A stretch of DNA of 12,578 nt from Phycisphaerae bacterium. GTDB taxonomy: Bacteria > Planctomycetota > Phycisphaerae > UBA1845. Positions 1 to 12,578 of the stretch are shown piece after piece. Within the stretch, counting starts at the first letter, position 1, and each line of letters opens with the position of its first letter. The notes under the pieces were generated by a model that searched no databases, was not told where the DNA came from, and saw nothing but the letters and a program-made list of their open reading frames with translations. Made by a program: the position numbers and the translations under genes. The stretch spans positions 1-12,578 of the forward strand of contig JANQGB010000237.1 of NCBI GenBank assembly GCA_028277545.1, in the 5' to 3' direction.

Positions 1-1
1 C

Positions 2-1690
2 GGCTACTGCTTCTACTCCGTCTGTCAGGAAGCGGACTACCAGACCAATCTGGTCAACGGTAAGTACGCCAGCTCCAACCTCGGGGAGCTGACCCGGACC
101 GTCCTGCAGACCAAGCATTTTGGCTTTGCCGATTTTGCCCCCTACGAGCCCAGCGCCGGGGCGCCGGCGGCGTTCATCGCCCAGCCAGTCATACACGATG
201 GCAAGACGGAGATTGTCGTCGCGCTGCAACTGCCGCTGGACGCCATCAACGGCATCATGGGCGTGCGGTCCGGAATGGGAGAGACGGGTGAGACTTACCT
301 TATCGGCCCCGACAAGCTGATGCGCTCCGACTCCTTCCTCGATCCTGCCAATCACTCGGTTGTGGCCTCCTTCGGCAATCCTTCCACCGGCGCGGTCGAT
401 ACGGACGCCGCTACCGCGGCCTTGAACGGCGACGCGGACGCCAGGATCATCATCGATTACAACGGCAATCCGGTGCTGAGCGCCTACACGCCCATAGATG
501 TGTTCGGGACCCGTTGGGCCTTGCTGGCGGAAATAGACGAATCCGAAGCCATGGCCGCCGTCAAGGACATGCAGGAGACTGCGGCAGCGGCCGGCACCAA
601 GTTGCTGACCTGGGTCGGTTCGGTGGGTGTGATTGCCGCGATCGTCGTAACGCTGATCAGCATGATCATGACGCGCGGAATCACCAGCCCGCTCAGGCAG
701 ATCTTCCGAGGCCTGAAGTCGTTCAGCCGTTCGGAGTTGAAGGAGACCGCGAGTACCTTCAACCGCATCATCGACGGAATGTCCGAAGGAGTTGCCCAGG
801 TCAACGATGCCGCGGGGCAGGTATCCAGCGCGTCTCAGCAGTTGGCCGAGGGCGCCAGCGAACAGGCCTCCTCGCTGGAGGAGACCTCCAGCGCCCTGGA
901 GGAGATGGCCGCCATGACGCGGGCCAACGCCGAGAACGCCAGGAAGGCCAACGATCTCGCCGGGCAATCGCACAAGGCCGCCGAAGATGGCGACAAGACT
1001 ATGGCGGCCATCAACGATTCGTCTGACCAGATCAGCAAGATCATCAAGGTTATCGAGGAGATCGCATTCCAGACCAACCTCCTGGCACTCAACGCGGCGG
1101 TGGAGGCTGCCCGGGCCGGTGAACACGGCAAGGGCTTCGCGGTGGTGGCGGACGAGGTGCGCAGCCTGGCTCAGCGAGCGGCCGAAGCGGCCGGTGAGAC
1201 CACCAGTCTCATCGGCAACTCGGTAAGCAAGTCGCGCGAGGGCACTCAGGCGATACGAGGTATCGTGGACGGCGTGGCCCAGGTTACGGAGTTGATCAAC
1301 GGGATCGCCCAGGCCAGCGAGCAGCAGGCCCAGGGGGTGGATCAGGTCAACACGGCCGTTTCCCAGATGGACCGGGTGACGCAATCGAACGCTTCGAGTG
1401 CCGAGGAGTCAGCCTCAGCGGCCGAGGAGCTGAGTTCCCAGGCAGCGTCGACCGCGGGACTGGTAGACGACCTGATCATCCTGGTGCAGGGTGATCAGGC
1501 CCGTGCTGCCGGTGCAACTGCGAACTCCGGCGTGCGGAGCCCGCAGACGAACACGCGGCACGCGGTGCACGCGGACAGTATGCAGCAGACGTCATCGGCG
1601 GAAGAGAGCATCCCGATGCAGGTCGGTGCAGAAGGCGGATCGGCAGATGACCTTGCCGGCCTCGATGACGGCGACCTCAACGAGTTCTGA
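2..1690 (+). CDS. Methyl-accepting chemotaxis protein, 5'-partial. Periplasmic dCache-like sensor, TM helix, HAMP and MCP signalling domain. The gene starts upstream of the window.
   Basis: Frame 2 is open from base 2 with no stop before 1688-1690. Translation contains the highly conserved MCP signalling-domain core [42 protein letters not shown] segment ([19 protein letters not shown]) is followed by a HAMP-like stretch. The N-terminal part ([13 protein letters not shown]...[31 protein letters not shown]) resembles a Cache-type ligand-binding domain. Glu/Gln/Ser-rich methylation heptads are present. Confidence 0.9.
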
Positions 1691-1712
1691 AACACGTCCG
1701 TGGTAGCGTGAT

Positions 1713-1752
1713 GGCGGGCGCCGGGTGACCTCGGCCAGGCCCGGCGCCCGCC
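1713..1752 (+). terminator. GC-rich stem-loop 23 nt downstream of the MCP stop. Perfect 13-bp stem GGCGGGCGCCGGG / CCCGGCGCCCGCC with a 14-nt loop. No U-tract follows, so this is a candidate terminator or mRNA stabiliser.
   Basis: Read directly: 1713-1725 ggcgggcgccggg is the exact reverse complement of 1740-1752 cccggcgcccgcc. The downstream sequence gatcagtgtgcc has no T-run. Confidence 0.45.
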
Positions 1753-1950
1753 GATCAGTGTGCCAGCAGAGTCACTCCCCTCACAACGCGGGGCAATGCA
1801 GCCTGTGGCCGGCGCCGGCCAACCATGGCTGGCAACCGCCGCGCGCTTGCGTTATCCAGCATCCGGAAGGCACCCTTGCGTGTCAGCGCTACCGCCCGCC
1901 GGAGTGCACCGTCTCGCCGACACTTTCTGACACGGTTCTCTCCGTTTCAC

Positions 1951-1979
1951 TTGACGTGCTACTATTCATATAGTAATAT
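1951..1979 (+). promoter_or_regulatory. Sigma70-type promoter of the blaI-like gene. -35 TTGACG (1951-1956), 17-bp spacer, -10 TAATAT (1974-1979). RBS AAAGGAGG at 1995-2002, 6 nt before the ATG at 2009.
   Basis: Near-consensus hexamers with ideal 17-bp spacing in a locally AT-rich island inside a GC-rich genome. It sits 30 bp upstream of the start codon and is followed by a strong Shine-Dalgarno. Confidence 0.55.
1960..1975. promoter_or_regulatory. Candidate operator. Perfect 6-bp inverted repeat TACTAT-tcat-ATAGTA lies between the -35 and -10 and overlaps the -10. Likely autoregulatory binding site for the BlaI-family repressor.
   Basis: 1960-1965 tactat and 1970-1975 atagta are exact reverse complements. 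BlaI/MecI-family repressors are known to bind TAC...GTA-type dyads overlapping their own promoters. A further tagtaa copy occurs at 1991-1996 and a TAGCTA palindrome at 1987-1992. Confidence 0.4.
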
Positions 1980-2008
1980 TCCTATGTAGCTAGTAAAGGA
2001 GGCCCGGC

Positions 2009-2401
2009 ATGGACGGACCCACCCCGCATATCACCGCGGCGGAGCTGCGGATCATGAAGGTGCTGTGGCACCTCGGTTCGGGGACGGTGCGGCAGACCCT
2101 GGACGCCCTGCCCGCCGAGAAGGGTGATCCGCCGGCATACACGACAGTCATGACCATGATGAAGCAGCTAGCCGAGAAGGGCGCGCTGCTGGTGGATCGG
2201 GCGCGGCAGCCCTTCGTGTACACCCCCGCGGTGCGTCGAGACCAGGTGCTATGCGAGCGGCTGACCCAGTTCCTGCACACCGTATTCGACGGCCAGGCGG
2301 AGGAACTGGTTCTCCACCTGGCTGATGAAGCAGACCTGTCGGCGGCGGACTTGCGCCGCATCGAAGCCAAGATCAGGAAGCGAGAGAAGGCGGAGCAGTA
2401 G
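2009..2401 (+). CDS. blaI: BlaI/MecI/CopY-family (penicillinase-repressor-type) winged-helix transcriptional repressor, 130 aa. It lacks the C-terminal CxCx4CxC metal cluster of CopY, so it is BlaI-like and presumably inactivated by proteolysis.
   Basis: N-terminal pattern ITAAELRIMKVLWHLGSGTVRQTLDAL...YTTVMTMMKQLAEKGALL...FVYTP matches the S.E..VM..W.....T..TV.T.L.RL..KG.L...Y.Y signature of the Penicillinase_R family. A C-terminal dimerisation helix is present (LSAADLRRIEAKIRK). A strong RBS precedes it. An M56 peptidase gene lies immediately downstream, the canonical arrangement. Confidence 0.85.
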   Translation: MDGPTPHITAAELRIMKVLWHLGSGTVRQTLDALPAEKGDPPAYTTVMTMMKQLAEKGALLVDRARQPFVYTPAVRRDQVLCERLTQFLHTVFDGQAEELVLHLADEADLSAADLRRIEAKIRKREKAEQ

Positions 2402-2438
2402 GGCGCCCCTCGTCGGACGGAGCCAAAGAGGATAGGCC

Positions 2439-4265
2439 ATGGATGCAGCCTGGGCGGCGATCGACTGCCACGAGATATCTACGGCATTGCTGGTTTGGAT
2501 TGGTCGGGCCCTGCTGTTGGGAACGGCGTTGGCTGGTGCCACCTGGCTGCTGGTTCGGTTGCTGGGCCGCCGACTGCATCCCGGGATGGAGGCGGCGCTC
2601 TGGCTTATCGTTCTGGTACGGTTTCTTACGCCGATGGGACCGGAGTGGGAATTCTCCTTCGCTACCCTCCTGTCGAGCGCCTCACCCCGTCCATCGGTTA
2701 GTGACACGCTTCCTATGAGCTGGCCGGCGGACGAAGCTCGCGGCTTTCAATCTGCGACTCCCGAGCCCACTGCCGTTGTGGGCGCAACCTCTACAACTGG
2801 CACTACTCCGGCTCCACAGGCCTCCGATGACAGGCGGCTGGAGCGCCCCGCCGCGTCAGGGGCGGCGGACCGGACGTCACGCTGGACCACGCTTGTGGCT
2901 GTCGTGTACCTGAGCAGCGTGGCAGTCCTGTTCTGTTTGCGCATCCGGCGGTACCGGGCGTTTGTGGCCAGTTGCCGCAGCCTGCCGCCCGCGGACGACC
3001 GCACGCACCAGTTAGTTGCCCGGGTATGCAGTCGTCTAGGTTTGCGGCGAGTTCCGTCGTCGCGTAGCAGTGAAGCATCGCCCGCCCCGTTCGTTGTCGG
3101 GCTGTGGCATCCGATACTGGTACTTCCCCGCCGTCGATTCGTTCGGCCGGACGAGTTGGAGACGGTGGTCGTACACGAAGTCGCCCATCTCCGGCGGGGC
3201 GACATGCTGGTCAGACACCTGCAGTGGATCGCCGGAACGTGGCTGTTCTTCTGGCCGGTTGTTGCCTGGGTTAACCGGCGCATCGACACGGCCCGCGAGT
3301 ACGCCTGTGACGCCTGGGCCCTGCGTCATGGGCAACTCACCGCAAGCCAGTACGCCCGGTGCCTGCTCAGTGCAGCCCGTCCGAGGCCGTACCGGCGTTA
3401 CCCCGACCGCCCAGCCCTATGGCCCGTGTTCGAACCGGCCTGCATGGGCGGGCAGACAACCAACATCGAGAGGAGAATCGATATGATCCTGGACTCATCC
3501 GGTGGCCTGGCGAAGCGTCCTGTGTGGGGTCTGCTGACACTCGCCCTTATCCTGAGTTGGGGAGGCTTCGCGCTCACTGGTGCGGCCAGTGCCAACCAGC
3601 ACGCTGCAAGCGATGCAGAGACCTGGCCCGCAACCGAGGAAGCGGTCAAGCAACACGCGGTACAACTGTACCATCAGGTCGCCCAGCGAGCAGCCGCAGA
3701 CCTCAACGGTGATGGTGTGCTCGCCTATCGCGAGAAGACCATCTACCTGATCGGGCTGGCGGCGCAGGAGCAGGATGCCTTCATCGAGGAGTTCCCCTTC
3801 GCGGACCGCAATCACAACGGCCATCTCGACTTCTGGGAAGCTCACGACGCCATCCGCGGAATCACACTGATCGCGTATGCAGATAGAAGGCCGGACGCCG
3901 CCCCCGGGGCACGGCTCGACCTGGAGTTCTACCACCTGGCCTTGGAAGCTCAGCAGTGGCTAATGGATAGTGTGACCGCCGAGCCCAGCGCCACGGACAT
4001 CGCCAATATTCGCCCCATCGTCGTTCTATGTGGCGAGGACCCGCGCTCAGATCACGTCCGCAAGCTCAACCACGGCGGGCCTGAAGAACCCCGCAAGGCG
4101 CGACGTCCACGGGCCGGCGCCCCGCCCAGGTTCGGCGAGCTCGAGGGTAGTATTGCCGACCTCGAGGCGAAGCTGGCTGCGGAGCAGGACGCCGACGAGA
4201 GTGCCAGGCTCGAAGCCATGATCGCCAAACTCAGGGGGCTGCTGGCCAAGCTGGAACAGGCCTGA
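2439..4265 (+). CDS. blaR1: BlaR1/MecR1-like M56-family membrane zinc-metallopeptidase signal transducer, 608 aa, with a non-canonical sensor. The C-terminal extracytoplasmic domain carries two EF-hand Ca2+-binding loops and a terminal coiled coil instead of a penicillin-binding/transpeptidase-fold domain.
   Basis: N-terminal TM helices. HEXXH zinc motif VVHEVAHLRRGD at nt 3174-3188 (H246) within the conserved M56 context (WHPILVLPRR...VVHEVAHL...WPVVAWVNRRIDTAREYACDAWAL). A further TM helix (VWGLLTLALILSWGGFALTG) follows. Two 12-residue loops match the canonical EF-hand pattern D-x-[DN]-x-[DN]-G-x-[ILV]-x-x-x-E: DLNGDGVLAYRE (nt 3699-3734) and DRNHNGHLDFWE (nt 3804-3839), about 23 residues apart as in a paired EF-hand. 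The C-terminus is a heptad coiled coil (LEGSIADLEAKLAAEQDADESARLEAMIAKLRGLLAKLEQA). RBS AAGAGGA sits 7 nt upstream. Confidence 0.85.
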   Translation: MDAAWAAIDCHEISTALLVWIGRALLLGTALAGATWLLVRLLGRRLHPGMEAALWLIVLVRFLTPMGPEWEFSFATLLSSASPRPSVSDTLPMSWPADEARGFQSATPEPTAVVGATSTTGTTPAPQASDDRRLERPAASGAADRTSRWTTLVAVVYLSSVAVLFCLRIRRYRAFVASCRSLPPADDRTHQLVARVCSRLGLRRVPSSRSSEASPAPFVVGLWHPILVLPRRRFVRPDELETVVVHEVAHLRRGDMLVRHLQWIAGTWLFFWPVVAWVNRRIDTAREYACDAWALRHGQLTASQYARCLLSAARPRPYRRYPDRPALWPVFEPACMGGQTTNIERRIDMILDSSGGLAKRPVWGLLTLALILSWGGFALTGAASANQHAASDAETWPATEEAVKQHAVQLYHQVAQRAAADLNGDGVLAYREKTIYLIGLAAQEQDAFIEEFPFADRNHNGHLDFWEAHDAIRGITLIAYADRRPDAAPGARLDLEFYHLALEAQQWLMDSVTAEPSATDIANIRPIVVLCGEDPRSDHVRKLNHGGPEEPRKARRPRAGAPPRFGELEGSIADLEAKLAAEQDADESARLEAMIAKLRGLLAKLEQA

Positions 4266-4344
4266 CCGGCAGTTCGTTGGCAGGCAGCACCTTTGGAAAC
4301 CGGCGCTGGTCGCGGGCCGGATCGTCGAAGCGCGGCGTTAAACG

Positions 4345-5187
4345 TCAGAGGCTGAGGTGATCCGGCCCGAAGACCAGGCTGCCTCCCCAGAAGCCGGTTA
4401 TGGCCAGGAGCGCGCAGGCCGCCAGCAAGCCCAGACCATACGCCCAGCGCCACGGGCCGGTCAGTCGGTTCCAGCGCCAGATCCGCAGCACGGATAGCGC
4501 GATGGCGAGCACCATAGACGCGGTAGCGGACCATTCGTGTCGCTCGGCAATACGATGGAGTGCCTCACCGAACTGCATGGCGTCGTAGGCCATGTTGCCA
4601 GTAACAACCGCGGCGGCCGCGGCAACGGACGCGGTCAGCAGCGGTACCGCATCCGCTTTGGCGAACGCGTCGCGGCCGGTCACGGTCCACACCAGGAAGG
4701 CCAACATTGCCAGCGGAATGCCCGCCAGAGGGAAGTGAACGATCACCGGGTGGAGCCGGGCCAACCAGGGCAGGCGGTCTTGCGACCCGCCAGTGGGTGT
4801 CCCGGCGCGGTCACGCTGTTTTTCTATCGTGGTTACATCAACTGGAGTCGAGTGAGCGCTCGCAGGTTGGCCTGAGCTTTGCGCGTCCGCGGTGTCCTGG
4901 GGTGACGGTTTGGCGAACTGCGGCAGCCTCGACAGGTACCTCTCAGGATCGGCCTGGAACTTCGTCAGGCAGCGCTGGCAGCATAAGGCTACTGTCTTGC
5001 CCAGGTGCTCCACGGTGATTGCCGGGTCGGCCTTCTCCTCCGTCATTACCGGGCACCATTCATTGACGGACTGCTGCGACGCCAGGGCGGGTGCGGACAC
5101 GCCCGTGATGGTGGTAAGGACCAGGAGGAGGATGGGCAGACCGGTCCGAGAGCGGTGACTCAGATTGTCACGGACCCTCTGTGGCAT
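4345..5187 (-). CDS. Exported or membrane protein, 280 aa. Sec-type signal peptide, one TRASH/YHS-type metal-binding domain (C-x23-C-x3-C), a Pro/Ser/Thr/Gln linker, and a C-terminal 4-TM domain with an HPxxVHFP motif reminiscent of DUF2231-type membrane proteins.
   Basis: CPVMTEEKADPAITVEHLGKTVALCCQRCLTKFQADPERY is the same motif as the three repeats in the upstream gene. The hydrophobic N-terminus LPILLLVLTTITGVSAPALA precedes it. The C-terminal half carries the TM segments LPWLARLHPVIVHFPLAGIPLAMLAFLVW, VPLLTASVAAAAAVV, WSATASMVLAIALSVL and WAYGLGLLAACALLAITGF. It starts 12 nt after the upstream gene's stop and is co-oriented with it, so the two form an operon. Confidence 0.75.
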   Translation of the reverse strand: MPQRVRDNLSHRSRTGLPILLLVLTTITGVSAPALASQQSVNEWCPVMTEEKADPAITVEHLGKTVALCCQRCLTKFQADPERYLSRLPQFAKPSPQDTADAQSSGQPASAHSTPVDVTTIEKQRDRAGTPTGGSQDRLPWLARLHPVIVHFPLAGIPLAMLAFLVWTVTGRDAFAKADAVPLLTASVAAAAAVVTGNMAYDAMQFGEALHRIAERHEWSATASMVLAIALSVLRIWRWNRLTGPWRWAYGLGLLAACALLAITGFWGGSLVFGPDHLSL

Positions 5188-5199
5188 TGCTGCACCGTA

Positions 5200-5892
5200 C
5201 TACCGGTGACCGTCGTGTCCATGATCACCGTGGTCGTGGGCGCCGTGCTCATGTGCCTCGTGATGATCGCCGGAGCGCTGCTTTTCGGCCGGTTTGAGCT
5301 GTTCCGGCTTCAGTACGAAGCCTTGTGCCGCGAGCTTGGAGGCGTACTTGGCCGGATCGTCGTAAAACTTCTTCTCGCAGGCGGAGCAGCAGAAGTAGAT
5401 CTTCTGGCCGGTCTTGATGGTCGTGAAGGCCTGCGGGCTGATTTCGCCGCCCATGACCGGGCACTTGGTCTGATAGCTGTAGCTGTTGGCCAGCGCCGCT
5501 GCGTACTTGCCGGGATCCTTCTCGTACTTGCTGGCGCACCCCTTGCAGCAGAAGGAGACTTTCCTGCCGTTCTGTTCGACGGACGTCTTCCCGTCCACTG
5601 GCTCGCCCGTGACGGGACATGTGACCTGGATCGCGGGACGGTCGGCCATCGCCTGGCGCTGGGCAGCCACCTTGGCCGCATACTTCGCCGGATCCTTGCC
5701 GTACTTGGCCAGACAGGAGTCGCAGCAGAAGAACGCCGGCCCCTCGTCAGTGCTGGCCCGGAAGGCCAGGTTGGCCGGCTCGTCCATGATCGGGCATTGC
5801 GGCATGGGCTTGGCACCGTCACCCGCCAACGCGCTGCCGGCGCCCAGCCCGACAACCATCGTTAACCCCACAGCGATTGCTCGGCGCTTCAT
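5200..5892 (-). CDS. Secreted triple-TRASH/YHS-domain metal-binding protein with a His-rich C-terminal tail, 231 aa from ATG 5892. The in-frame ORF extends to 5931, but the start at 5892 has the RBS.
   Basis: Three ~45-aa tandem repeats each carry C-P-[IV]-[MT]...F-C-C-x-x-C...K[YF]xxDPxKYA (C-x22/23-C-x3-C, the TRASH pattern): CPIMDEPANLAFRASTDEGPAFFCCDSCLAKYGKDPAKYA, CPVTGEPVDGKTSVEQNGRKVSFCCKGCASKYEKDPGKYA and CPVMGGEISPQAFTTIKTGQKIYFCCSACEKKFYDDPAKYA. Signal peptide MKRRAIAVGLTMVVGLGAGSALA. C-terminal tail GDHHEAHEHGAHDHGDHGHDGHR (nt 5203-5271). The minus-strand RBS GGAGG (plus-strand cctcc 5900-5904) lies 7 nt before ATG 5892. Confidence 0.8.
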   Translation of the reverse strand: MKRRAIAVGLTMVVGLGAGSALAGDGAKPMPQCPIMDEPANLAFRASTDEGPAFFCCDSCLAKYGKDPAKYAAKVAAQRQAMADRPAIQVTCPVTGEPVDGKTSVEQNGRKVSFCCKGCASKYEKDPGKYAAALANSYSYQTKCPVMGGEISPQAFTTIKTGQKIYFCCSACEKKFYDDPAKYASKLAAQGFVLKPEQLKPAEKQRSGDHHEAHEHGAHDHGDHGHDGHR

Positions 5893-6127
5893 CGCATGTC
5901 CTCCACCGGTCGGGTTTCTGTCCATCTCCATGCCCGGATTGTGCCGGGCCGGGAACGAGCCCTATCGATTGCCGCTCGCTTACGTGATGTGTTGCGGGTC
6001 CTCCGGCCAGAGCACCCCTGCATCGCGCAGGCAACATACCCATGGCCCGCGGGCGGGTCAACAGGGAGTGTTGCCCGCCCAGTGCATAGCGCAAAATCCT
6101 GCGCGGCAGCGGTACCTGCGACCAGGC

Positions 6128-7465
6128 TTAGCCCTCGGTTGGCCTGACTTTGGCGTCGGCCTTCTTGGTGACGTTGCCGGCGATGTTCTGGGTCATCTCG
6201 CGAAGATCTATGCCCAGCACGCTCTCCAGGGTGGCCAGCGATTCGGTCAGCATGCGGGCCCGCCCCATGGCGCCGCCGGCGATGGCGTTGCCGCTGCCAC
6301 CATCGATGACCGTGATGTTGTCGAGCTGAACGTCGGCTATCGTCTTGGTTATGTCGCCGACCACATTGGGCAGCATCTCGGTGAGCATGACCTTCAGGGC
6401 GTCCGGGTGCTGCTGTATCGACTTGCCGATCAGCTCGATTGCAGCGGCCCGGGCCTTGCCTTCTTCGAAGATCTGGGCGGCTTCGCCCTCTGCCTGGGCC
6501 TTGGCGACGTCGCGGGCGGCGTTGGCCTGTTTCACCTGCGTGGCGATGAGGCGCTGTTCCTCTGCCTGGGCCTTGGCCTCCTGGGTCTGGGCTTCCTTCA
6601 ACTCGGCTTCGCGGGCCAGCTCGGCCTTTCTGATGCGCAGGGCGTTGTCGGCTTCGGCGATGGCCTTGTCGGCGCCGATGCGCGCTTCCTCGGCTCTCTG
6701 GCGGCCCATCGCCTCGGCGCTCTTGGCGTCGGCCTCGCGTTGGGCCTGGGCCTCGCGGGCCTTGGCTTCCGCTTCAGCTTCCTTGATGTCGGCGTCTGAT
6801 TTTCTGGAGGCCTCGAACTGCCGGGCGTCCGCCCGCACCTGGGCCGAGGCCTTGCGGGCGATCGATTCGAGATACTGCTCTTCGTCGTGGACGTTCTGAA
6901 TGTTGACGCTGTCGATGACCATGCCCAGCTTGCGGAAGTCGTCGGTGACCTCGTTCATCACCGTGGCCACGAACTTGTCGCGGTCCTCGACGATTTCCTC
7001 CGGCGTCATCTTGCCGATGACCGCGCGCAAGCCACCCTCCAGCGTCTCGCGGGCGACGCGCTGCATCTCCGTCGGTGGCTGCCCGAGAAATCGCTCGATG
7101 GCGTTTCCGCGAACCTCCGGATCCGACGATACCTTCACATTGGCCACCCCGGTAACCGTCACCGGGATCATCGTACCGCCGCCGGACTGGGCCTTGACCT
7201 CCAGCCCGACCTGCATGTTACGCAGACTCAGGCCGGAGACTTTTTCTATGATGGGGATGACCAGCGTGCGACCACCGATGAGCGTGCGGTAGCCCTGGGT
7301 CATGGAGGTCCGCTTCCCGCTGATGACCAGCAGTTCGCTGGGGTTGCCGACCACCATGATCTTCGCGACCAGCACCGCGAAGGCGATGAGCAAAAAGAGC
7401 AGAAAGACGCCGATGATGATGCCGCTGCTCAGGTCGGTAGCTTGAGCGATGATCCATGCGTTCAT
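6128..7465 (-). CDS. floT: Flotillin-like SPFH/band-7 membrane-microdomain protein (FloT/YuaG/YqiK type), 445 aa.
   Basis: N-terminal TM anchor IIIGVFLLFLLIAFAVLVAKIMVV. SPFH core (VISGKR...TLIGGRTLVIPIIEKV...NMQVGLEVKAQSGGGTMIPVTVTGVANVKV). A long Ala/Glu/Lys/Arg/Gln-rich coiled coil with EA-type repeats and a conserved C-terminal segment follow. Its start overlaps the stop of the upstream nfeD-like gene (ATGA, 7462-7465). Confidence 0.9.
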   Translation of the reverse strand: MNAWIIAQATDLSSGIIIGVFLLFLLIAFAVLVAKIMVVGNPSELLVISGKRTSMTQGYRTLIGGRTLVIPIIEKVSGLSLRNMQVGLEVKAQSGGGTMIPVTVTGVANVKVSSDPEVRGNAIERFLGQPPTEMQRVARETLEGGLRAVIGKMTPEEIVEDRDKFVATVMNEVTDDFRKLGMVIDSVNIQNVHDEEQYLESIARKASAQVRADARQFEASRKSDADIKEAEAEAKAREAQAQREADAKSAEAMGRQRAEEARIGADKAIAEADNALRIRKAELAREAELKEAQTQEAKAQAEEQRLIATQVKQANAARDVAKAQAEGEAAQIFEEGKARAAAIELIGKSIQQHPDALKVMLTEMLPNVVGDITKTIADVQLDNITVIDGGSGNAIAGGAMGRARMLTESLATLESVLGIDLREMTQNIAGNVTKKADAKVRPTEG

Positions 7466-8220
7466 GAGTCTCCTCCCGATTCGTGTTCGTGAAGAAAGTC
7501 GTATTCTTGTTTCGAGATCACTTCCGCCGTGCCGTTGGCGTAGGTAACCACCACAACGCGGTCACCGACGTTGAAGTGATCATCCGGCCTCTGAGGAACG
7601 GCCCGTACGAAACGTTCCCGACCGCGGATCTGGATAGCTACCTCCCCGCATTGCTCCGGGGAGACCGCCAGGGTGACCCTCGCTCCCTGGTTCAGGAAAT
7701 CGCCTGTCACCGGGGCGCTGTCACCGCTGGTGCGACGCAGGTAGCGGAGTGTCTGGTGGACGGTCTGGCCCACCACCAGCCCGGAGCCCACCGCGGCGCC
7801 CAGCACGGCCCACATACTCAGCGACGTCGTGTAGGACAGTACGGTGCCGATCAGTCCGAAGGTGGCCATGAAGTAGACCAGGAAGCGGATCGAGAACCAG
7901 GTAGCTAATGTGAAACCCTCGACGGCATGATCCACGTCGACGTGGCCGTCCACATCGACATCGGCGCCGACGTCGACATCACCAGCCACGTCAGCATCGA
8001 CATCGATGTCGGCATCCAGGTCGGTGTCCAGATCCAGGTGGGCGTCAGCGGACACGTCGACGTCACCTTCGGCGTCGTGGCCGAACACTGTCGACACGAC
8101 CAGCAACCCGCCGCCGACTATCAGGCAGACGATGTAAACCGTTGTAAGGGTCGACTGCCCCGGCGGCACTGCTGATACTAACTGGGTGTACGCCGCGAGT
8201 GTGCAAATCAGACCGGACAT
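7462..8220 (-). CDS. nfeD: NfeD-like (YuaF/YqeZ-type) membrane protein, 252 aa. TM helices plus a C-terminal OB-fold beta-barrel, with an unusual ~55-aa acidic (Asp-Val/Asp-Ile/Asp-Ala)n low-complexity insertion after TM1.
   Basis: TM1 LTTVYIVCLIVGGGLLVVSTVF. Acidic repeat DAEGDVDVSADAHLDLDTDLDADIDVDADVAGDVDVGADVDVDGHVDVDHAVEG. Two more TM segments. The C-terminal segment GDFLNQGARVTLAVSPEQCGEVAIQIRGRERFVRAV...NVGDRVVVVTYANGTAEV is typical of the NfeD OB domain. The canonical nfeD-flotillin gene pair is translationally coupled. Minus-strand RBS AAGGGAG lies ~8 nt upstream of ATG 8220. Confidence 0.8.
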   Translation of the reverse strand: MSGLICTLAAYTQLVSAVPPGQSTLTTVYIVCLIVGGGLLVVSTVFGHDAEGDVDVSADAHLDLDTDLDADIDVDADVAGDVDVGADVDVDGHVDVDHAVEGFTLATWFSIRFLVYFMATFGLIGTVLSYTTSLSMWAVLGAAVGSGLVVGQTVHQTLRYLRRTSGDSAPVTGDFLNQGARVTLAVSPEQCGEVAIQIRGRERFVRAVPQRPDDHFNVGDRVVVVTYANGTAEVISKQEYDFLHEHESGGDS

Positions 8221-8765
8221 CGTGCGAACTCCCTTGCAGTCAGTGGGCGAAGTGTTCCGCGACTATGCGCCCCACTGTGAATACCTTACCACGCTGCGGA
8301 AGACCCCGCTATTCCAATCGAGACGGAGTTTCATAACCGCCAGTAATCTTCGGAATTACGTGCCGGTGCTTGACCGCTGGCTGAGAATGCAGCGGTGCGA
8401 ACGACAGCGCGCCTGGTTCAAATGGCGCAAGAGCGGGCGCTCTTGGTCAGTGCCAGGGTTGCCGGGGGAGTGGCACGAGCGCGACTCGGCCAGGTTCTGA
8501 TAACCTCTGTCGGCCGAGCATTGAGCACGTGATGTAAGGACATGTAAGATGCAGGGAAGCACTCGCGAACGAGTTGTCAGGCGTGCCGCAGGCGTCTGCA
8601 CCGCCGCGGCTCGCCGCTGTTGCTGCTGGCCCCGGCCATTTCGAGCTGGAAGAGTGCCTACAGGGCTGTCTTGACCTACGCGGCGGGCACGCCACCGGGA
8701 CGCTGGGGCGCCACCAGGCGCGGTTTTGCCCGCTTCTCATATGTCGGTATACTCGCCTCCCGACT

Positions 8766-9701
8766 ATGAGTGTGTTGCTATCGGTCAACGACGTTCGCGT
8801 GGAATTCAAGACGCTGGTCGCGGTGCGCGACGTGAGCTTCGAGCTCCGCGCCGGCCAGCTTCTCGGATTGATCGGGCCCAACGGTGCGGGCAAGACAACC
8901 TTGCTGCGCGTGCTGGCCGGCTTGCACGCACCGACAGCGGGTACGGCCACGGCGATGGGTTTCGACGTGCTCGGCGACGCCGACGAGGTCAGGCGCCACG
9001 TCGGCTTCGCTCCGGACTCACCGCCGGCTTATGACGAGTTGAGCATCGACGAGTTTCTCACCTTCGTAGCCCGGGCGTACGAGTTGGATTGGGCCGAGGC
9101 CGGCGAACGTATCGACTTCTGGCTGGAGCAGACCTGGCTGGCCGACAAGCGTGGAGAGAAGATCAAGAACCTCTCCCGGGGCATGAAACAGCGGGTCACG
9201 GTCGCCAGGACGCTGGTGCCCAACCCCAACGTCGTGTTGCTCGACGAACCCTCTCAGGGGCTGGATCCCGCCGGGCGGATCCAACTGCGGCAGGTTATCG
9301 CAGGTTTGCGCGAGCAGGGCAAAGCCGTCATTGTGTCGTCCCACATCCTGGCGGATCTGGAGGAGTACTGCACCGACATCGCCATCATCGAGCACGGCAG
9401 CATCCTGCAGTTCGGACCGGTGCGGGCGCTAACCGGCCGGGCGGAGGACCGTCACCGATACCGCCTGGTACTCGACGACGGAACCGCGGACGTGACCGAC
9501 ATTCTGAGCGGAATCGAGGACGTCAGTCACGTTACCCGCGACAACGACGCCTACCTGTTCGAATATCACGACGGGCGGGCGTACGCCGCGGTGTTGCTGC
9601 GTGAGTTGATCGAGCGCGGCGTCAGGGTAGCGGAGTTCGCGCCGTTGCCCGAATCACTCGAGGAGACCTATCTCAAGGCGGGTGTAAAGCAGGTGGACTG
9701 A
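8766..9701 (+). CDS. ABC transporter ATP-binding protein, ABC-2/DRA-like subfamily, 312 aa, with a ~80-aa C-terminal accessory domain. The annotated longer ORF from 8574 is probably 5' leader. ATG 8766 gives the canonical ABC N-terminus.
   Basis: Walker A GPNGAGKTT. Q-loop. ABC signature LSRGMKQRV. Walker B VVLLDEPSQGLD. H-loop SSHIL. The start MSVLLSVNDVRVEFKTLVAVRDVSFEL matches typical ABC N-termini. Confidence 0.9.
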   Translation: MSVLLSVNDVRVEFKTLVAVRDVSFELRAGQLLGLIGPNGAGKTTLLRVLAGLHAPTAGTATAMGFDVLGDADEVRRHVGFAPDSPPAYDELSIDEFLTFVARAYELDWAEAGERIDFWLEQTWLADKRGEKIKNLSRGMKQRVTVARTLVPNPNVVLLDEPSQGLDPAGRIQLRQVIAGLREQGKAVIVSSHILADLEEYCTDIAIIEHGSILQFGPVRALTGRAEDRHRYRLVLDDGTADVTDILSGIEDVSHVTRDNDAYLFEYHDGRAYAAVLLRELIERGVRVAEFAPLPESLEETYLKAGVKQVD

Positions 9702-11251
9702 TGGAAGCACCTATCCGGTTGCCGAATGCCATCCTGTGGGTCCAGTCGCGCCTGGCCGGCGGGCGGAGGGTGCTGTGGATCACGGCGGCCTGGTCGGTGG
9801 GGCTGGTAGTGCTGCCTATGGTTGTCCACAGGATGGACGACGGGCTTGATGCCGGCCACGCACTTATTGTGGCGGCAATCCTGCAGGGAGTTGTGCTGGT
9901 GTTGGGGGGATGCAACTCCGTCTACAAAACGCTCACTCGTGACTTTACGACCAAGATGTTCGAGTCGCACCGCCTTTCTCCGGTGAGCTCTTTGGCCGTG
10001 ATGCTTGGCTACCTGTTCGGCAGCACGATACAGGTGATGCTGCTATTTGCGGCCACCGCGGCGTACGGAACCGTGCTGGCGCTTGTAGCCGGCCTGTCCG
10101 TGGATGGCTGGCTGGTCGGCAACGTAATGGTCTTCTTCGCGGCGGTATCGCTGTGGAGCATGGTGGTCTGCGCTGGCGTAGGCGGGACAAAGCCGGGGAA
10201 CCTGTTAGGGGTGCTCGTTCTGGGTGCCCTGCTGGGTGGTTGGGCACTCGCGCTGCTGCCCGGGCTGGGCTTGCTGACCGGTGCCTACGCGCTGGCGGGT
10301 GGCGGTGCCGCCATGACCGGTTACTTCGAGCTCATTGCCAGCCCTGACGTGGTGGCCTCGAGCGACCTTACGACTGTGGTGGCCGCCGCGCTGATCATAT
10401 TCTCCATTGGCATGACCATGCTCTGGCTCAGGGTCGGCCAACGACGCTACCGCCGGCCAGACCGGCCGGGGCTCGACGCGGTGTACGGCACTATCCTGCT
10501 CATTCTCTGGCTGCTGGCCTCCGGCCCCGGTGTTCTGTTGTACAGGCAGTTCGATCCGGATGGGTTGGAGGGCGCGGACTCCAACGCCCAGCTTCTGGCT
10601 ACTCTGGTGATCTCGTTGCTGTTGGCCCTGTTGCCCATAAGTGGGGCGTGCGCGGATCGGGCCCGGCTGATTCGCGGTGCAACCGCCCGCGTGTGGGCGG
10701 AGCGGGTTTCCAGCCGGCACGTCGCGGTACTGGCGGTCGTCCTGATCTGTCTGGCGCTGGGCCTGCCAGGTCTGGCCAGCGACGTCGATCCAGTCTGGGA
10801 CATCGCCTTTACGGGCGAAACCGCCTCGGAGTGGCTCTACACCGCCCTGGCCATGGTCGCGGGGCTGCTGGCTATCGATGGGTTCGCCCGGATGAGTCGG
10901 CTGTTCAACAAGTCGGTCCTCATGGCCCACCTGCTGTTTTTGATAGGCGCCTGGGCTCTTCCACCGGCGGCGGACTATCTTTACGGCCTGTTGCGTCTGG
11001 CCGGGGCGGCCGATCCGTATGCCGCCGTCACGGTCGGTCCGCTGTTTGGCTGTTCGCCGGTGGGAACGATGATCAACGTCTGGACAGGCCTTGGCGCGCC
11101 GGTGATACCTGGCCTGATCGTCCAGGGGCTGCTCGCGCTGACCCTGAGCCTGCTGGCTTTCCGGACGGAACGCCGCGAGATCGCCCGGCGCCGTGGCGAA
11201 GGTCTGCGTTTGCCCGCCATAAAGGCAGGGCCTGCTGTCGAGCGATCGTAA
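9701..11251 (+). CDS. Polytopic integral membrane protein, 516 aa, ~12 predicted TM helices. Putative permease partner of the upstream ABC ATPase. Substrate unknown.
   Basis: ATG overlaps the ATPase stop (TGATG at 9699-9703). The protein is strongly hydrophobic, with a Gly/Ala/Leu/Val-rich series of ~20-residue segments throughout. Antisense ORFs of similar length are Arg/Pro/Gln-rich shadow frames. Confidence 0.7.
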   Translation: MEAPIRLPNAILWVQSRLAGGRRVLWITAAWSVGLVVLPMVVHRMDDGLDAGHALIVAAILQGVVLVLGGCNSVYKTLTRDFTTKMFESHRLSPVSSLAVMLGYLFGSTIQVMLLFAATAAYGTVLALVAGLSVDGWLVGNVMVFFAAVSLWSMVVCAGVGGTKPGNLLGVLVLGALLGGWALALLPGLGLLTGAYALAGGGAAMTGYFELIASPDVVASSDLTTVVAAALIIFSIGMTMLWLRVGQRRYRRPDRPGLDAVYGTILLILWLLASGPGVLLYRQFDPDGLEGADSNAQLLATLVISLLLALLPISGACADRARLIRGATARVWAERVSSRHVAVLAVVLICLALGLPGLASDVDPVWDIAFTGETASEWLYTALAMVAGLLAIDGFARMSRLFNKSVLMAHLLFLIGAWALPPAADYLYGLLRLAGAADPYAAVTVGPLFGCSPVGTMINVWTGLGAPVIPGLIVQGLLALTLSLLAFRTERREIARRRGEGLRLPAIKAGPAVERS

Positions 11252-11288
11252 CGGGGCTGCCCGAGCCTCGGCGGAGGTAGAAACATCC

Positions 11289-12176
11289 GTGAACGAGGTG
11301 CAGATCGAGCCCAAGGACTTCCGGGGCTTGCGACGCTCCGGCCGACATTCCGGGGCGAGCCGGGCGATCGGCGGTGGCTTCGTCTGGGCCCGAAACCTGA
11401 TTGCCCGGGGCATGGCGACAGCAGGGTTGACCCCCAACATGCTGACCGTGGCGGGTTTCGTGGTCACCTGTGGCACGGGCCTGTGCCTGGCAATCGGCGC
11501 GGGTGACGCTCTGCCGTGGGCCAGCGTGCCGCCCGGGACCGAGACCAGCTATTGGCCGCTGTGGGTGGCGGCCGGCTTGTTTCTGTCCAGCGCCTTCGAC
11601 ATGCTGGACGGGGCCCTGGCCAGGGTCGGTAATCTGGCGACGAAGTTCGGGGCGGTCTTTGATTCTTTCACCGACCGCGGCAGCGACGCGGCGCTGTTCC
11701 TGGGGTGCGCGGTTTACTACGCCCGCTATGGTAATGCTACTTACGTGGCACTCAGTGTGCTGGCCCTCTCTTTTGCCCTGAGCATCAGCTATGTCAAGGC
11801 CCGGGCTGAGAACGTGGTTGACCGTTGCGACGTGGGCTATTGGCAGCGCGGCGAACGCAACGCGGCCCTGTTGATCGCCGCCTGCGCCGGACACCTGCCC
11901 GCGGCCCTCTGGCTGCTCGGAACCTCGCCGGCCCTTACCGTCTTGAGCAGGGTCAGACACACCCGTGCTCTGCTGACCGGTGATGGCGCGCCGTGGACCC
12001 CGGCTGGTTGGCTGAAGGCAGCCATGATCTGGCGCCATCCGCGCGGCTCGTTCGGGTACGACGTCGCCACCGGGCTCAATATCGCTTTTCTGATAGTTGG
12101 CCCGTGGATCTGGCCGCGAATGTACGACCACGGGTACGACCCGCTGGGGATGTGGTTGGCGCGCATGGCCGGTTAA
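11289..12176 (+). CDS. CDP-alcohol phosphatidyltransferase-family membrane enzyme, 295 aa, GTG start. Phospholipid head-group synthase type; specificity not determinable.
   Basis: Signature D-G-x2-A-R-x8-G-x3-D-x3-D is present as DMLDGALARVGNLATKFGAVFDSFTDRGSD (nt ~11601-11690). Multiple TM helices. RBS GGAGGT lies 10 nt upstream of GTG 11289. It is co-oriented with the ABC genes and 37 bp after the permease stop, so it is plausibly the same operon. Confidence 0.8.
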   Translation: MNEVQIEPKDFRGLRRSGRHSGASRAIGGGFVWARNLIARGMATAGLTPNMLTVAGFVVTCGTGLCLAIGAGDALPWASVPPGTETSYWPLWVAAGLFLSSAFDMLDGALARVGNLATKFGAVFDSFTDRGSDAALFLGCAVYYARYGNATYVALSVLALSFALSISYVKARAENVVDRCDVGYWQRGERNAALLIAACAGHLPAALWLLGTSPALTVLSRVRHTRALLTGDGAPWTPAGWLKAAMIWRHPRGSFGYDVATGLNIAFLIVGPWIWPRMYDHGYDPLGMWLARMAG

Positions 12177-12208
12177 CAGGATGATGGATCGCACGTAGGC
12201 TGCGTCTT

Positions 12209-12420
12209 CAGTGGCAGGAAGCCGGTGCCACACTTAAGAAACAACAACTGCTCTTCCACCGGCAAGATGCCGGTGCCACACTTAAGAAACGACAACTGCT
12301 CTTCCACCGGCAGGATGCCGGTGCCACACTTAAGAAACGACAACTGCTCTTCCACCGGCAAGATGCCGGTGCCACAGTTGAACAACAACTACTACGTTCG
12401 TGTGGCAGGGTGCCGGTGAT
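12209..12420. repeat. Tandem direct repeat. Three near-identical 48-bp units (12221-12268, 12269-12316, 12317-12364) plus degenerate flanking copies. Each unit is GCCGGTG-N29-CACCGGC-N5, so a 7-bp GC hairpin (CACCGGC-aagat-GCCGGTG) recurs every 48 bp.
   Basis: Read directly. The unit is gccggtgccacacttaagaaac[a/g]acaactgctcttccaccggca[a/g]gat. The only variation is two A/G positions. The 4th copy (12365-12400) has substitutions and a 3-nt deletion. Both array edges carry the degenerate junction GTGGCAGGnnGCCGGTG (12211-12227 and 12402-12418). Local GC is lower than the surroundings. Confidence 0.9.
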
Positions 12421-12449
12421 TCTTTGAGACTGCTTGCCGGTCGGGTGGC

Positions 12450-12578
12450 TTAGCTGGGCGGTGGATGATCGTTGGTTTGCTCGTCGGGGACATTGGCCAG
12501 TTGCTGTTTGCGCGATTTCCGGGCCTGGTATGCGAGGAACAGTGCGAACATGACGCCCAGGCCGATCAGCGGTATGTG
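12450..12578 (-). CDS. 3' end of a minus-strand gene running off the right edge. C-terminal 42 aa ...HIPLIGLGVMFALFLAYQARKSRKQQLANVPDEQTNDHPPPS*, apparently the last TM helix plus cytoplasmic tail of a membrane protein. Identity unknown.
   Basis: The frame is open from the window edge down to a TAA stop (plus-strand tta at 12450-12452). GC3 is high as in the neighbouring genes. It is not in the ORF track because there is no in-window Met start. Confidence 0.4.
   Translation of the reverse strand, partial: HIPLIGLGVMFALFLAYQARKSRKQQLANVPDEQTNDHPPPS

Follow-up and report, generated by a model that had tools for sequence, protein, structure and literature searches.

A two-gene operon of a Phycisphaerae bacterium encodes a putative periplasmic module for the capture and hand-off of Cu(I)/Ag(I), which would normally work with a CusCBA-type efflux pump, where it would replace CusF, and of which the copy described here is a stand-alone one. 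From the sequence evidence set out below, we give this reading a probability of roughly 0.55. The DNA analysed (the window) is a stretch of 12,578 nt (assembly GCA_028277545.1, contig JANQGB010000237.1, positions 1-12,578).

Both open reading frames, A and B, were confirmed on the minus strand (Table 1). Only 12 bp separate them, a gap that supports the operon structure proposed in the original prediction: A and B form one operon and are co-transcribed. The open reading frame of A spans 5200-5931, but translation almost certainly begins at the ATG at 5892: a GGAGGA sequence precedes this codon by 6 nt, and the length in the public gene model (P0097) is 230 aa. On the other side of the operon, the convergent BlaR1-like gene is found at the predicted distance of 79 bp from B (4266-4344), and the arrangement of A-B, the BlaR1-like gene and BlaI is identical in a second public assembly.

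Table 1. Features of the A-B operon in the window (a slash marks the signal peptide site)
Feature	Position	Strand	Remark
Gene A, 3xYHS protein with predicted export, 230 aa	5200..5892	-	Pfam YHS in 3 stretches; ORF itself to 5931
A signal peptide, MKRRAIAVGLTMVVGLGAGSALA/GD	5824..5892	-	hydropathy and A-x-A site; kept in A homologues examined
A YHS repeat 1, aa 30-75, Cys 33, 56, 57, 60	5668..5805	-	
A YHS repeat 2, aa 89-134, Gln89, Cys 92, 115, 116, 119	5491..5628	-	
A YHS repeat 3, aa 141-187, Gln141, Cys 144, 168, 169, 172	5332..5472	-	
A His-rich tail, GDHHEAHEHGAHDHGDHGHDGHR	5203..5271	-	disordered in AlphaFold model
Shine-Dalgarno GGAGGA of gene A	5899..5904	-	6 nt upstream of ATG
Sigma70-like promoter TTGACC-17-TATGTT, upstream of A	6033..6061	-	consensus match only
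Imperfect inverted repeat flanking sigma70-like promoter of A	6019-6041 and 6064-6086		
Gene B, signal peptide + YHS + linker + DUF2231, 280 aa	4345..5187	-	
B signal peptide, aa 1-36, ...SAPALA/SQ	5080..5187	-	
B YHS domain, aa 42-88; invariant N42, C45, C69, C70, C73	4924..5064	-	pLDDT >93
B disordered linker, aa 89-138	4774..4923	-	
B DUF2231 four-helix membrane domain, aa 139-280	4348..4773	-	

The YHS and DUF2231 assignments made earlier are supported. Pfam YHS (PF04945) matches A in three stretches (E 1.7e-16, 60.4 bits, cut-off 30.3), each with the small zinc-ribbon-like fold, and the AlphaFold model of the protein (pLDDT 86, pTM 0.74) predicts a rigid three-domain body. The number of YHS domains varies from 3 to 6 among homologues. 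The His-rich tail is real, with 9 His among the last 23 residues, and a C-terminal His tract is present in 30 of the 34 A homologues. Both proteins carry signal peptides, called here by inspection and conservation: n, h and c regions and A-x-A sites (ALA/GD in A, ALA/SQ in B) are conserved in 34 A and 28 B homologues, which supports export of A and B to the periplasm. Export of A by Tat, considered for the KRR of its n-region, was rejected because the homologues mostly have a single Arg (MNR...).

In B, a fourth YHS domain, a disordered linker and four hydrophobic helices with the motif HPVIVHFP (aa 146-153) are all present as described. The membrane part matches DUF2231 (PF09990) with 43.5 bits (cut-off 26.4) and its helices (151-170, 180-203, 208-237 and 245-273) are modelled with pLDDT >90. 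The YHS domain of the window's B scores 21.8 bits, under the cut-off of 30.3; all 28 aligned B homologues match the profile (best E 4.3e-9) and some exceed the cut-off (33 bits). It is 29-35% identical to the repeats of A (tblastn E 6e-10). The linker is His-rich in 15 of 28 homologues and holds a single His in the window's B. At the periplasmic face are found all of the conserved H146, H151, H217 and H277, only two His are universally conserved in DUF2231, and the four helices have no conserved polar residues within the membrane. Elsewhere DUF2231 is fused to cytochrome c, cytochrome b5 or rubrerythrin, and it lies directly upstream of a rubrerythrin gene in all six contexts sampled; the two rubrerythrins that were translated both carry lipoprotein signals. 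The literature search on DUF2231 returned nothing substantive, only a database listing.

The Cys motif reported before does recur four times, as C-P-[VI]-[MT]-x18/19-[FL]-C-C-x2-C-x2-K-[YF]-x2-D-P-x-[KR]-Y; two residues instead of three precede K[YF], and B has LCC and DPERY. The first Cys lies 22, 22, 23 and 23 residues from the CC pair, so that all four domains read C-x22/23-C-C-x2-C and contain the Cys...Cys-x3-Cys core, whose Cys are invariant or nearly so in 34 A and 28 B homologues. In the described metal tetrad the first ligand, Asp or Cys, precedes the first Cys by three residues (PMC4626032). None of the four domains has either residue at this position. In A it is occupied by the invariant Gln residues Q89 and Q141, in B by the invariant Asn N42, and otherwise by Leu/Met; the extra vicinal Cys may substitute for the missing ligand.

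The family is not rare. Tandem periplasmic domains of this kind had been taken to be rare, a view that is not supported: there are more than 264 A-like proteins and 534 B-like clusters at 50% identity (E<=1e-10). A description of the A-B system was not found among the top results of a full-text search on the YHS domain with CusA/CusB/RND/Planctomycetes.

An indication of function comes from the genomic context of the pair in 24 species loci of related Planctomycetota. A and B are conserved together in all of them, and in 18 they are adjoined by genes for an outer membrane factor (OMF), a CusB-like adaptor (MFP) and/or an RND pump, usually in the order A-B-OMF-MFP-RND. Genes for ECF sigma and anti-sigma factors are usually close to A-B, an ECF sigma gene in 12 of the 24 loci. 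Of 17 loci, 12 have in common the ECF-type promoter motif GGGAAG-N16-GCATC at a distance of 108-133 nt upstream of A. The neighbouring pump scores 741 bits against TIGR00914 CusA/CzcA (cut-off 701). When 13 pumps were aligned to E. coli CusA, M573, M623 and M672 were kept in all of them, as were D405, the proton-relay residue, and E412; together the relay Asp and the Met triad mark CusA-like Cu(I)/Ag(I) pumps, and it is at the triad that CusA binds Cu(I) (PMC8092243). A Czc-type pump for divalent cations was rejected for these operons because the TM4 motif is AIGxxVDx6EN, that is AIG...VD...EN and not DFG...DG...EN, and the Met triad is present. The CusB-like adaptors contain several Cys-type metal-binding motifs; one of them (L001) has WYTCGMHP...CPICHM, in which Pfam calls HMBD twice. 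No CusF-like gene was found in the related A-B/CusCBA-type operons examined, and neither A nor B matches a CusF family in Pfam/NCBIfam at E<=0.1. The metal-handling part of the original prediction is thus backed by the efflux synteny (18/24 loci) and by the methionine triad (13/13 pumps). The other partners of DUF2231 are redox proteins, which suggests for this domain of B a role different from, or additional to, that of a simple membrane acceptor.

The window itself departs from this arrangement. The 12.6-kb window contains no OMF, CusB-like adaptor or CusA-like RND gene, no ECF gene occurs on its contig, and the ECF-type promoter motif is absent upstream of A. The pair is therefore an orphan, stand-alone copy. 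Six of the 24 related loci showed no efflux gene beside the pair, two of them with <1.6 kb of sequence downstream; the neighbours checked in four are unrelated housekeeping genes. Given these loci and the window, A-B may have a job that is independent of the pump. We rejected the idea of a separate functional subfamily of orphans because they are scattered through the tree of B, and in a neighbour-joining tree RND-linked B proteins form the sister of the window's B.

Based on these data we propose the following model. A would be exported by Sec, and its three rigidly packed YHS domains would each provide one thiolate site of three or four Cys, while the His-rich tail would serve for low-affinity capture, possibly of Cu(II). 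A would thereby buffer and collect Cu(I)/Ag(I), which we infer to be the metal. Ligand exchange would then move it from A to the YHS domain of B, a domain of the same kind. The DUF2231 bundle would anchor B on the outer face of the inner membrane, and from B the metal would go to the CusB-like adaptor, at its Cys-type HMBD domains, and to the CusA-like pump, at its methionine triad. A and B would thereby take the place of CusF, which is missing from these operons. The His cluster at the periplasmic mouth of DUF2231 would most likely hold a redox-active cofactor or metal that keeps the thiolates and the bound copper reduced. This relay is supported by the domains, the synteny, the identity of the pump, the Cys motifs of the adaptor, the lack of a CusF-like gene, the His tracts and the redox partners of DUF2231; moreover, the YHS domain of B resembles the repeats of A, the window's B is related to RND-linked B proteins and in experiments a YHS domain conferred responsiveness to Cu2+ (PMC4626032).

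Several observations weigh against a copper relay. Periplasmic copper chaperones normally use Met and His, so that thiolate sites would be unusual. The contig lacks pump, adaptor and ECF genes and the ECF-type motif, and the linker of the window's B lacks the His tract of its relatives. Finally, a YHS/TRASH site of four Cys can have a purely structural role, as four Cys bind Cd in L24e (PMC4626032), and among solved relatives the YHS domain of phenol hydroxylase is the nearest.

A tentative alternative is that the pair does not relay metal passively. B would be primarily a quinol-linked electron-transfer protein whose DUF2231 domain binds heme b or a redox metal through H146 and H217, with or without H151 and H277. 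As its periplasmic electron acceptors or substrate sites it would use the YHS domains of B and A, and the pair would act as a reductase of Cu(II), or of another metal ion, making Cu(I) for Cus-type pumps. B may be redox-active, since the partners of DUF2231 elsewhere are redox proteins, among them rubrerythrin in Bacteroidota and cytochrome c domains in Planctomycetota; here the partners are YHS domains. Extended to the whole family, it is conceivable, if rather doubtful, that DUF2231 is a widespread unrecognised module that hands electrons on to exported redox partners, probably taking them from quinol by way of a heme or metal that His residues ligate at the outer face, and that A-B combines a periplasmic metal reductase with a thiolate relay, reducing Cu(II) to Cu(I) and feeding Cus-type pumps. 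DUF2231 is not a recognisable cytochrome b561: the prokaryotic profile (PF01292) reaches 19.9 bits at best (cut-off 30.1), covers only TM2-3 against its own TM1-2 and has an hhalign probability of 0.8%, and instead of the four heme-ligating His of that family only two His are universally conserved.

It is improbable that the Cys4 sites hold inert Zn and that A and B serve the envelope-spanning pump or the anti-sigma factor in assembly, tethering or sensing rather than as metal carriers. The closest solved relatives are structural sites of Zn/Cd type and the MYND/HIT/L24e zinc fingers, and the predicted rigid body of A (pTM 0.74) would suit a scaffold; a conserved periplasmic His/Cys motif in the anti-sigma factor itself could do the sensing. 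However, His-rich tracts stand beside the domains in most homologues, the number of domains varies from 3 to 6 and the pair persists as an orphan away from any pump. By analogy with CopC-CopD/YcnJ, a periplasmic binding domain might instead feed a permease importing copper or another metal, and here too a periplasmic metal domain is fused to a His-bearing membrane domain and pairs without pumps exist. This we consider very unlikely, because four helices with no conserved intramembrane polar residues make a poor permease, efflux genes are the dominant context and the other partners of DUF2231 are not transport substrates.

The suggested functional link of the operon with the convergent BlaR1-like/BlaI pair, joining cation sensing to metal handling, is largely refuted: despite the 79-bp proximity, the same arrangement in the second assembly and a BlaI-like repressor whose best NCBIfam match is CopY/TcrY (63.7 bits, well under the cut-off of 122), BlaI, BlaR1, flotillin and NfeD are within 10 kb of A-B in none of the 24 related loci, the genes are convergent and not co-transcribed, the repressor lacks the C-terminal Cys motif of CopY, and the only operator-like palindrome of BlaI type (TACTA-N6-TAGTA) is at 1960-1975, upstream of blaI, with none upstream of A.

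Returning to the capture and hand-off module, the closest functional counterpart of A would be CusF of E. coli CusCFBA. The gene of this small periplasmic protein accompanies that of a CusA-type pump having the M573/M623/M672 site, and CusF is presumed, as we propose for A-B, to supply adaptor and pump with Cu(I)/Ag(I). It consists of one domain, an OB fold with a Met2His site, whereas A has three Cys-based YHS domains, His tracts and a second, membrane-anchored partner. The tail of A recalls the metal sponges SilE/PcoE, whose disordered His-rich tracts are suited to bulk periplasmic capture and which are encoded with Cu/Ag resistance genes. SilE/PcoE are periplasmic, wholly disordered proteins that use His and Met, and A differs from them by its folded core of Cys domains. 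The similarity between the repeats of A and the YHS domain of B follows the same logic of chaperone and target domain as in CopZ/CopA. CopC-CopD/YcnJ fusions and the eukaryotic Dcytb/cytochrome b561 cupric reductases couple a periplasmic or extracellular copper site to a His-bearing membrane bundle, an architecture to which B would be analogous. B shares with other DUF2231 proteins the four-helix domain, HPxxVHFP and the conserved His in TM3, and differs from them in its partners, which are a YHS domain and a 3xYHS protein and not rubrerythrin, cytochrome c or cytochrome b5. The N-termini of Cu-ATPases, the Cu2+ sensor of the M. phlei adenylyl cyclase (PMC4626032), phenol hydroxylase PhN and ribosomal L24e belong to the same Pfam family and have the same fold and Cys...Cys-x3-Cys core as A and B. 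The YHS domain is described as cytosolic, with single-domain characterised examples (PMC4626032); unlike these, the domains of A and B appear to be exported, those of A are in tandem, and they carry Gln/Asn at the first ligand position and an extra vicinal Cys. FetA of C. jejuni (DUF2318 + YHS) is, like B, a membrane protein whose YHS domain is predicted to be periplasmic, and its gene belongs to a metal-homeostasis cluster; it differs in its eight TM helices, in the type of membrane domain, in its context of iron uptake and in the lack of a soluble tandem partner (PMC10783030).

Periplasmic copper chaperones are thought to avoid Cys and to use Met/His, and a large exported family of tandem Cys domains, encoded at the head of CusCBA-type operons, would widen this picture. 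If the relay is true, a substitute of CusF would have been identified for a whole phylum. If A-B is instead a metal reductase, it would explain how Cu(I) is supplied to Cu(I)-specific pumps in an oxidising periplasm. The pairing of DUF2231 with rubrerythrin suggests a general route for electrons from the membrane to the periplasm and, if DUF2231 is such an electron module, the DUF2231 and rubrerythrin of Bacteroidota would be a periplasmic quinol peroxidase. DUF2231 and periplasmic YHS domains, whose functions are vague or unassigned, gain a concrete and testable context.

Gene A contains three YHS domains (Pfam E-value 1.7e-16, score 60.4 bits, cut-off 30.3) and gene B a DUF2231 membrane domain (43.5 bits against 26.4), in agreement with the original prediction. 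We placed the gene A start at the ATG at 5892 because a GGAGGA Shine-Dalgarno sequence stands 6 nt 5' of it and P0097, the publicly available model (230 aa), has the same start; gene B begins 12 bp past the gene A stop. The YHS domain of gene B, though below the Pfam threshold (21.8 bits), appears to be real because the profile is matched by all 28 aligned homologues, some above the cut-off, and because it is 29-35% identical to the gene A repeats. The motif C-P-[VI]-[MT]-x18/19-[FL]-CC-x2-C-x2-K-[YF]-x2-DP-x-[KR]-Y occurs four times in the two proteins; four copies had been predicted, with a spacing that differs by one residue from the actual one. Profile, Cys core and fold are those of YHS domains, but the first ligand position, canonically Asp or Cys, is occupied by an invariant Gln or Asn, and there is an extra vicinal Cys; this makes them a distinct subtype. 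Both proteins have signal peptides with classic n/h/c regions and an A-x-A site, kept in every homologue examined. The YHS domain has been described as cytosolic (PMC4626032); a predicted periplasmic one is found in Campylobacter jejuni FetA (PMC10783030). The folded parts are modelled confidently by AlphaFold (gene A, pLDDT 86, pTM 0.74, residues 30-200 above 95; values over 90 for both the YHS and the membrane domain of gene B), with the gene A tail and the gene B linker disordered.

Both families are large, and their known members come only from Planctomycetota, chiefly Phycisphaerae MAGs. An exhaustive search returned 534 gene B-like clusters (50% identity, E<=1e-10), most with a full-length match, and therefore the architecture is not rare, contrary to the original suggestion. 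Much larger metagenome relatives also exist (P0345, P0356, P0376, P0394, P0414, P0471, P0476; 495-1027 aa), most with 3-5 stretches matched separately. The C-terminal tract of gene A (9 His in 23 residues) has His-rich counterparts in 30 of 34 homologues, 21 of the 34 have another behind the signal peptide, and the gene B linker is His-rich in 15 of 28; His-rich tracts are a family trait.

Synteny was analyzed in 24 loci, each from a different GTDB species. B is immediately preceded by a multi-YHS gene in all loci having upstream sequence (a more divergent copy in L024, L026 and L028), and in 18 loci the pair adjoins an outer-membrane factor (OMF), a CusB-like adaptor (MFP) and/or an RND pump, most commonly in the order A-B-OMF-MFP-RND. 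These pumps are of the copper/silver type: they reach the curated CusA/CzcA threshold, have a TM4 motif of the CusA type and, in 13 of 13 aligned, retain the residues that form the Cu(I) site in CusA, M573, M623 and M672 (PMC8092243). Each adaptor has several HMBD motifs of the Cys type. The A-B-pump operons contain no CusF-like gene. In six loci no adjoining efflux gene was found, two of them with less than 1.6 kb of downstream sequence, and in the four with checked neighbours these are unrelated housekeeping genes. From the observed domains, export signals, conservation, synteny and pump signature, we propose, at a probability of roughly 55%, that A and B capture periplasmic Cu(I)/Ag(I), the presumed metal, and hand it off to the CusCBA-type pump in place of CusF; metal would be transferred between the like YHS domains and then delivered to HMBD and CusA. 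Our literature search found no papers on YHS proteins in RND operons.

An ECF sigma gene is near the pair in 12 of the 24 loci, typically divergent and just upstream of A, with a recognisable zf-HC2 anti-sigma in ten of these. A promoter-like motif of the ECF type, GGGAAG-N16-GCATC(C/T)AA, lies at a fixed distance, 108-133 nt, upstream of the A start codon in 12 of 17 loci (L001, L003, L004, L007, L010, L013, L014, L015, L017, L019, L020, L025); it is missing in the window and in those loci that showed no neighbouring ECF gene. The anti-sigma has a conserved His/Cys-rich periplasmic motif, FGTHKDxPCVxGxHxGHxVEVGPWxxVHLTDxTTCHCVLS, a candidate metal-sensing domain. In four loci the ECF gene and A are separated by a gene for a membrane sensor of the HAMP-SpoIIE (PP2C phosphatase) type, and L017 also encodes a PepSY_TM protein. 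In the window, gene A has a sigma70-like promoter (TTGACC-17-TATGTT). The inverted repeat that flanks it, 23 nt long and imperfect (74% complementary), could be a regulator's operator.

Two His of the gene B membrane domain, H151 and H217, are the same in all 28 gene B homologues, and two more, H146 and H277, are almost invariant. Among ten diverse DUF2231 domains H146 is the sole invariant His, H217 is kept in nine, and Asp replaces H151 in some. Signal peptide, exported YHS domain and the positive 3-4 loop (RIWRWNR) fix the predicted orientation, which would put all four His where the bundle opens to the periplasm. Distant DUF2231 proteins are fused to redox domains: to rubrerythrin (L030), in planctomycetes to cytochrome c placed at one end or the other (L033, L034), and to cytochrome b5 (L036, P0250, P0327). 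The commonest form is a stand-alone protein of 142 aa. Its gene is directly followed by one for rubrerythrin in all 6 contexts sampled, whose flanks are unrelated, so that the two make up a conserved module; both translated rubrerythrins (L037, ..FAGC; L039, ..FTSC) have lipoprotein signal peptides, which points to an exported peroxidase fed from the membrane. Exported redox metalloproteins are thus recurrent partners of DUF2231, suggesting an electron-input role. The spirochaete b5 fusions (P0250, P0327, L036) have neither signal peptide nor TM3 His, and their loop charges suggest a reversed membrane orientation, so they form a divergent subfamily. No papers on DUF2231 function were found. 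The main rival, which overlaps our explanation, is that the chief role of gene B is quinol-linked metal reduction; we consider it unlikely, at somewhat less than half the weight of the capture and hand-off reading. Less likely than the reductase are structural-zinc scaffolding, which is improbable, and an uptake system, which is more doubtful still.

Coupling to BlaR1, suggested originally from the convergent neighbour, is the least credible reading: BlaI, BlaR1, flotillin and NfeD are absent within 10 kb in all 24 loci, and the palindrome TACTATTCATATAGTA, the predicted BlaI operator, occurs only upstream of blaI. It lies there with overlapping dyads in an AT-rich island of a contig otherwise 64% GC, likely the BlaI autoregulatory operator. 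No pump or ECF genes are present in the window; its gene B is sister to pump-linked copies and orphan pairs are dispersed across the gene B tree, therefore the window carries this module as an orphan or as a paralogous copy, and its pair is not a BlaR1-linked system. Elsewhere in the window, the membrane protein upstream of flotillin carries an extended acidic stretch, (D-x)n, and no Pfam match backs an NfeD-like identity for it; a polytopic protein is presumably an ABC transporter permease; and a 48-bp tandem repeat near the contig end (3.8 copies, 92% matches) reads through as repeated peptides in several frames.

Coordinates of features in the window and in related loci
Feature	Location	Strand	Remarks
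Gene A ORF	window 5200-5931	minus	start taken, ATG at 5892; 230 aa
Gene B	window 4345-5187	minus	280 aa; adjoins gene A
Gene A sigma70-like promoter	window 6061-6033		
Inverted repeat	window 6019-6086		
Flotillin (SPFH/FloT-like) and upstream membrane protein genes	window 6128-8220	minus	overlap 4 bp
18-bp repeat encoding acidic tract	window 7931-7992		
Polytopic membrane protein	window 9701-11251	plus	516 aa; after ABC ATPase gene; no Pfam match
Tandem repeat	window 12213-12390		
AT-rich island	window 1955-1995		just upstream of blaI
Palindrome TACTATTCATATAGTA	window 1960-1975		
HAMP-SpoIIE sensor gene	L015 2953-4776		
HAMP-SpoIIE sensor gene	L017 6053-7501		
HAMP-SpoIIE sensor gene	L019 1393-3144		
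HAMP-SpoIIE sensor gene	L025 6560-8110		
PepSY_TM protein	L017 5293-6021		
zf-HC2 anti-sigma with His/Cys motif	L001 5337-6215	minus	beside A-B-CusCBA operon
zf-HC2 anti-sigma with His/Cys motif	L003 5325-6215	minus	beside A-B-CusCBA operon
DUF2231 then rubrerythrin	L037 4001-5065		
DUF2231 then rubrerythrin	L039 4001-5124		
DUF2231 then rubrerythrin	L040 4001-5074		
DUF2231 then rubrerythrin	L043 3001-4093		
DUF2231 then rubrerythrin	L045 3001-4090		
DUF2231 then rubrerythrin	L047 3001-4065		
DUF2231-rubrerythrin fused protein	L030 6804-7820		Bacteroidales MAG
Cytochrome b5-DUF2231 fusion	L036 9377-10435		spirochaete

We class A and B as probable accessory metallochaperones for Cus-type efflux that are made of different components and may have a redox function as well.
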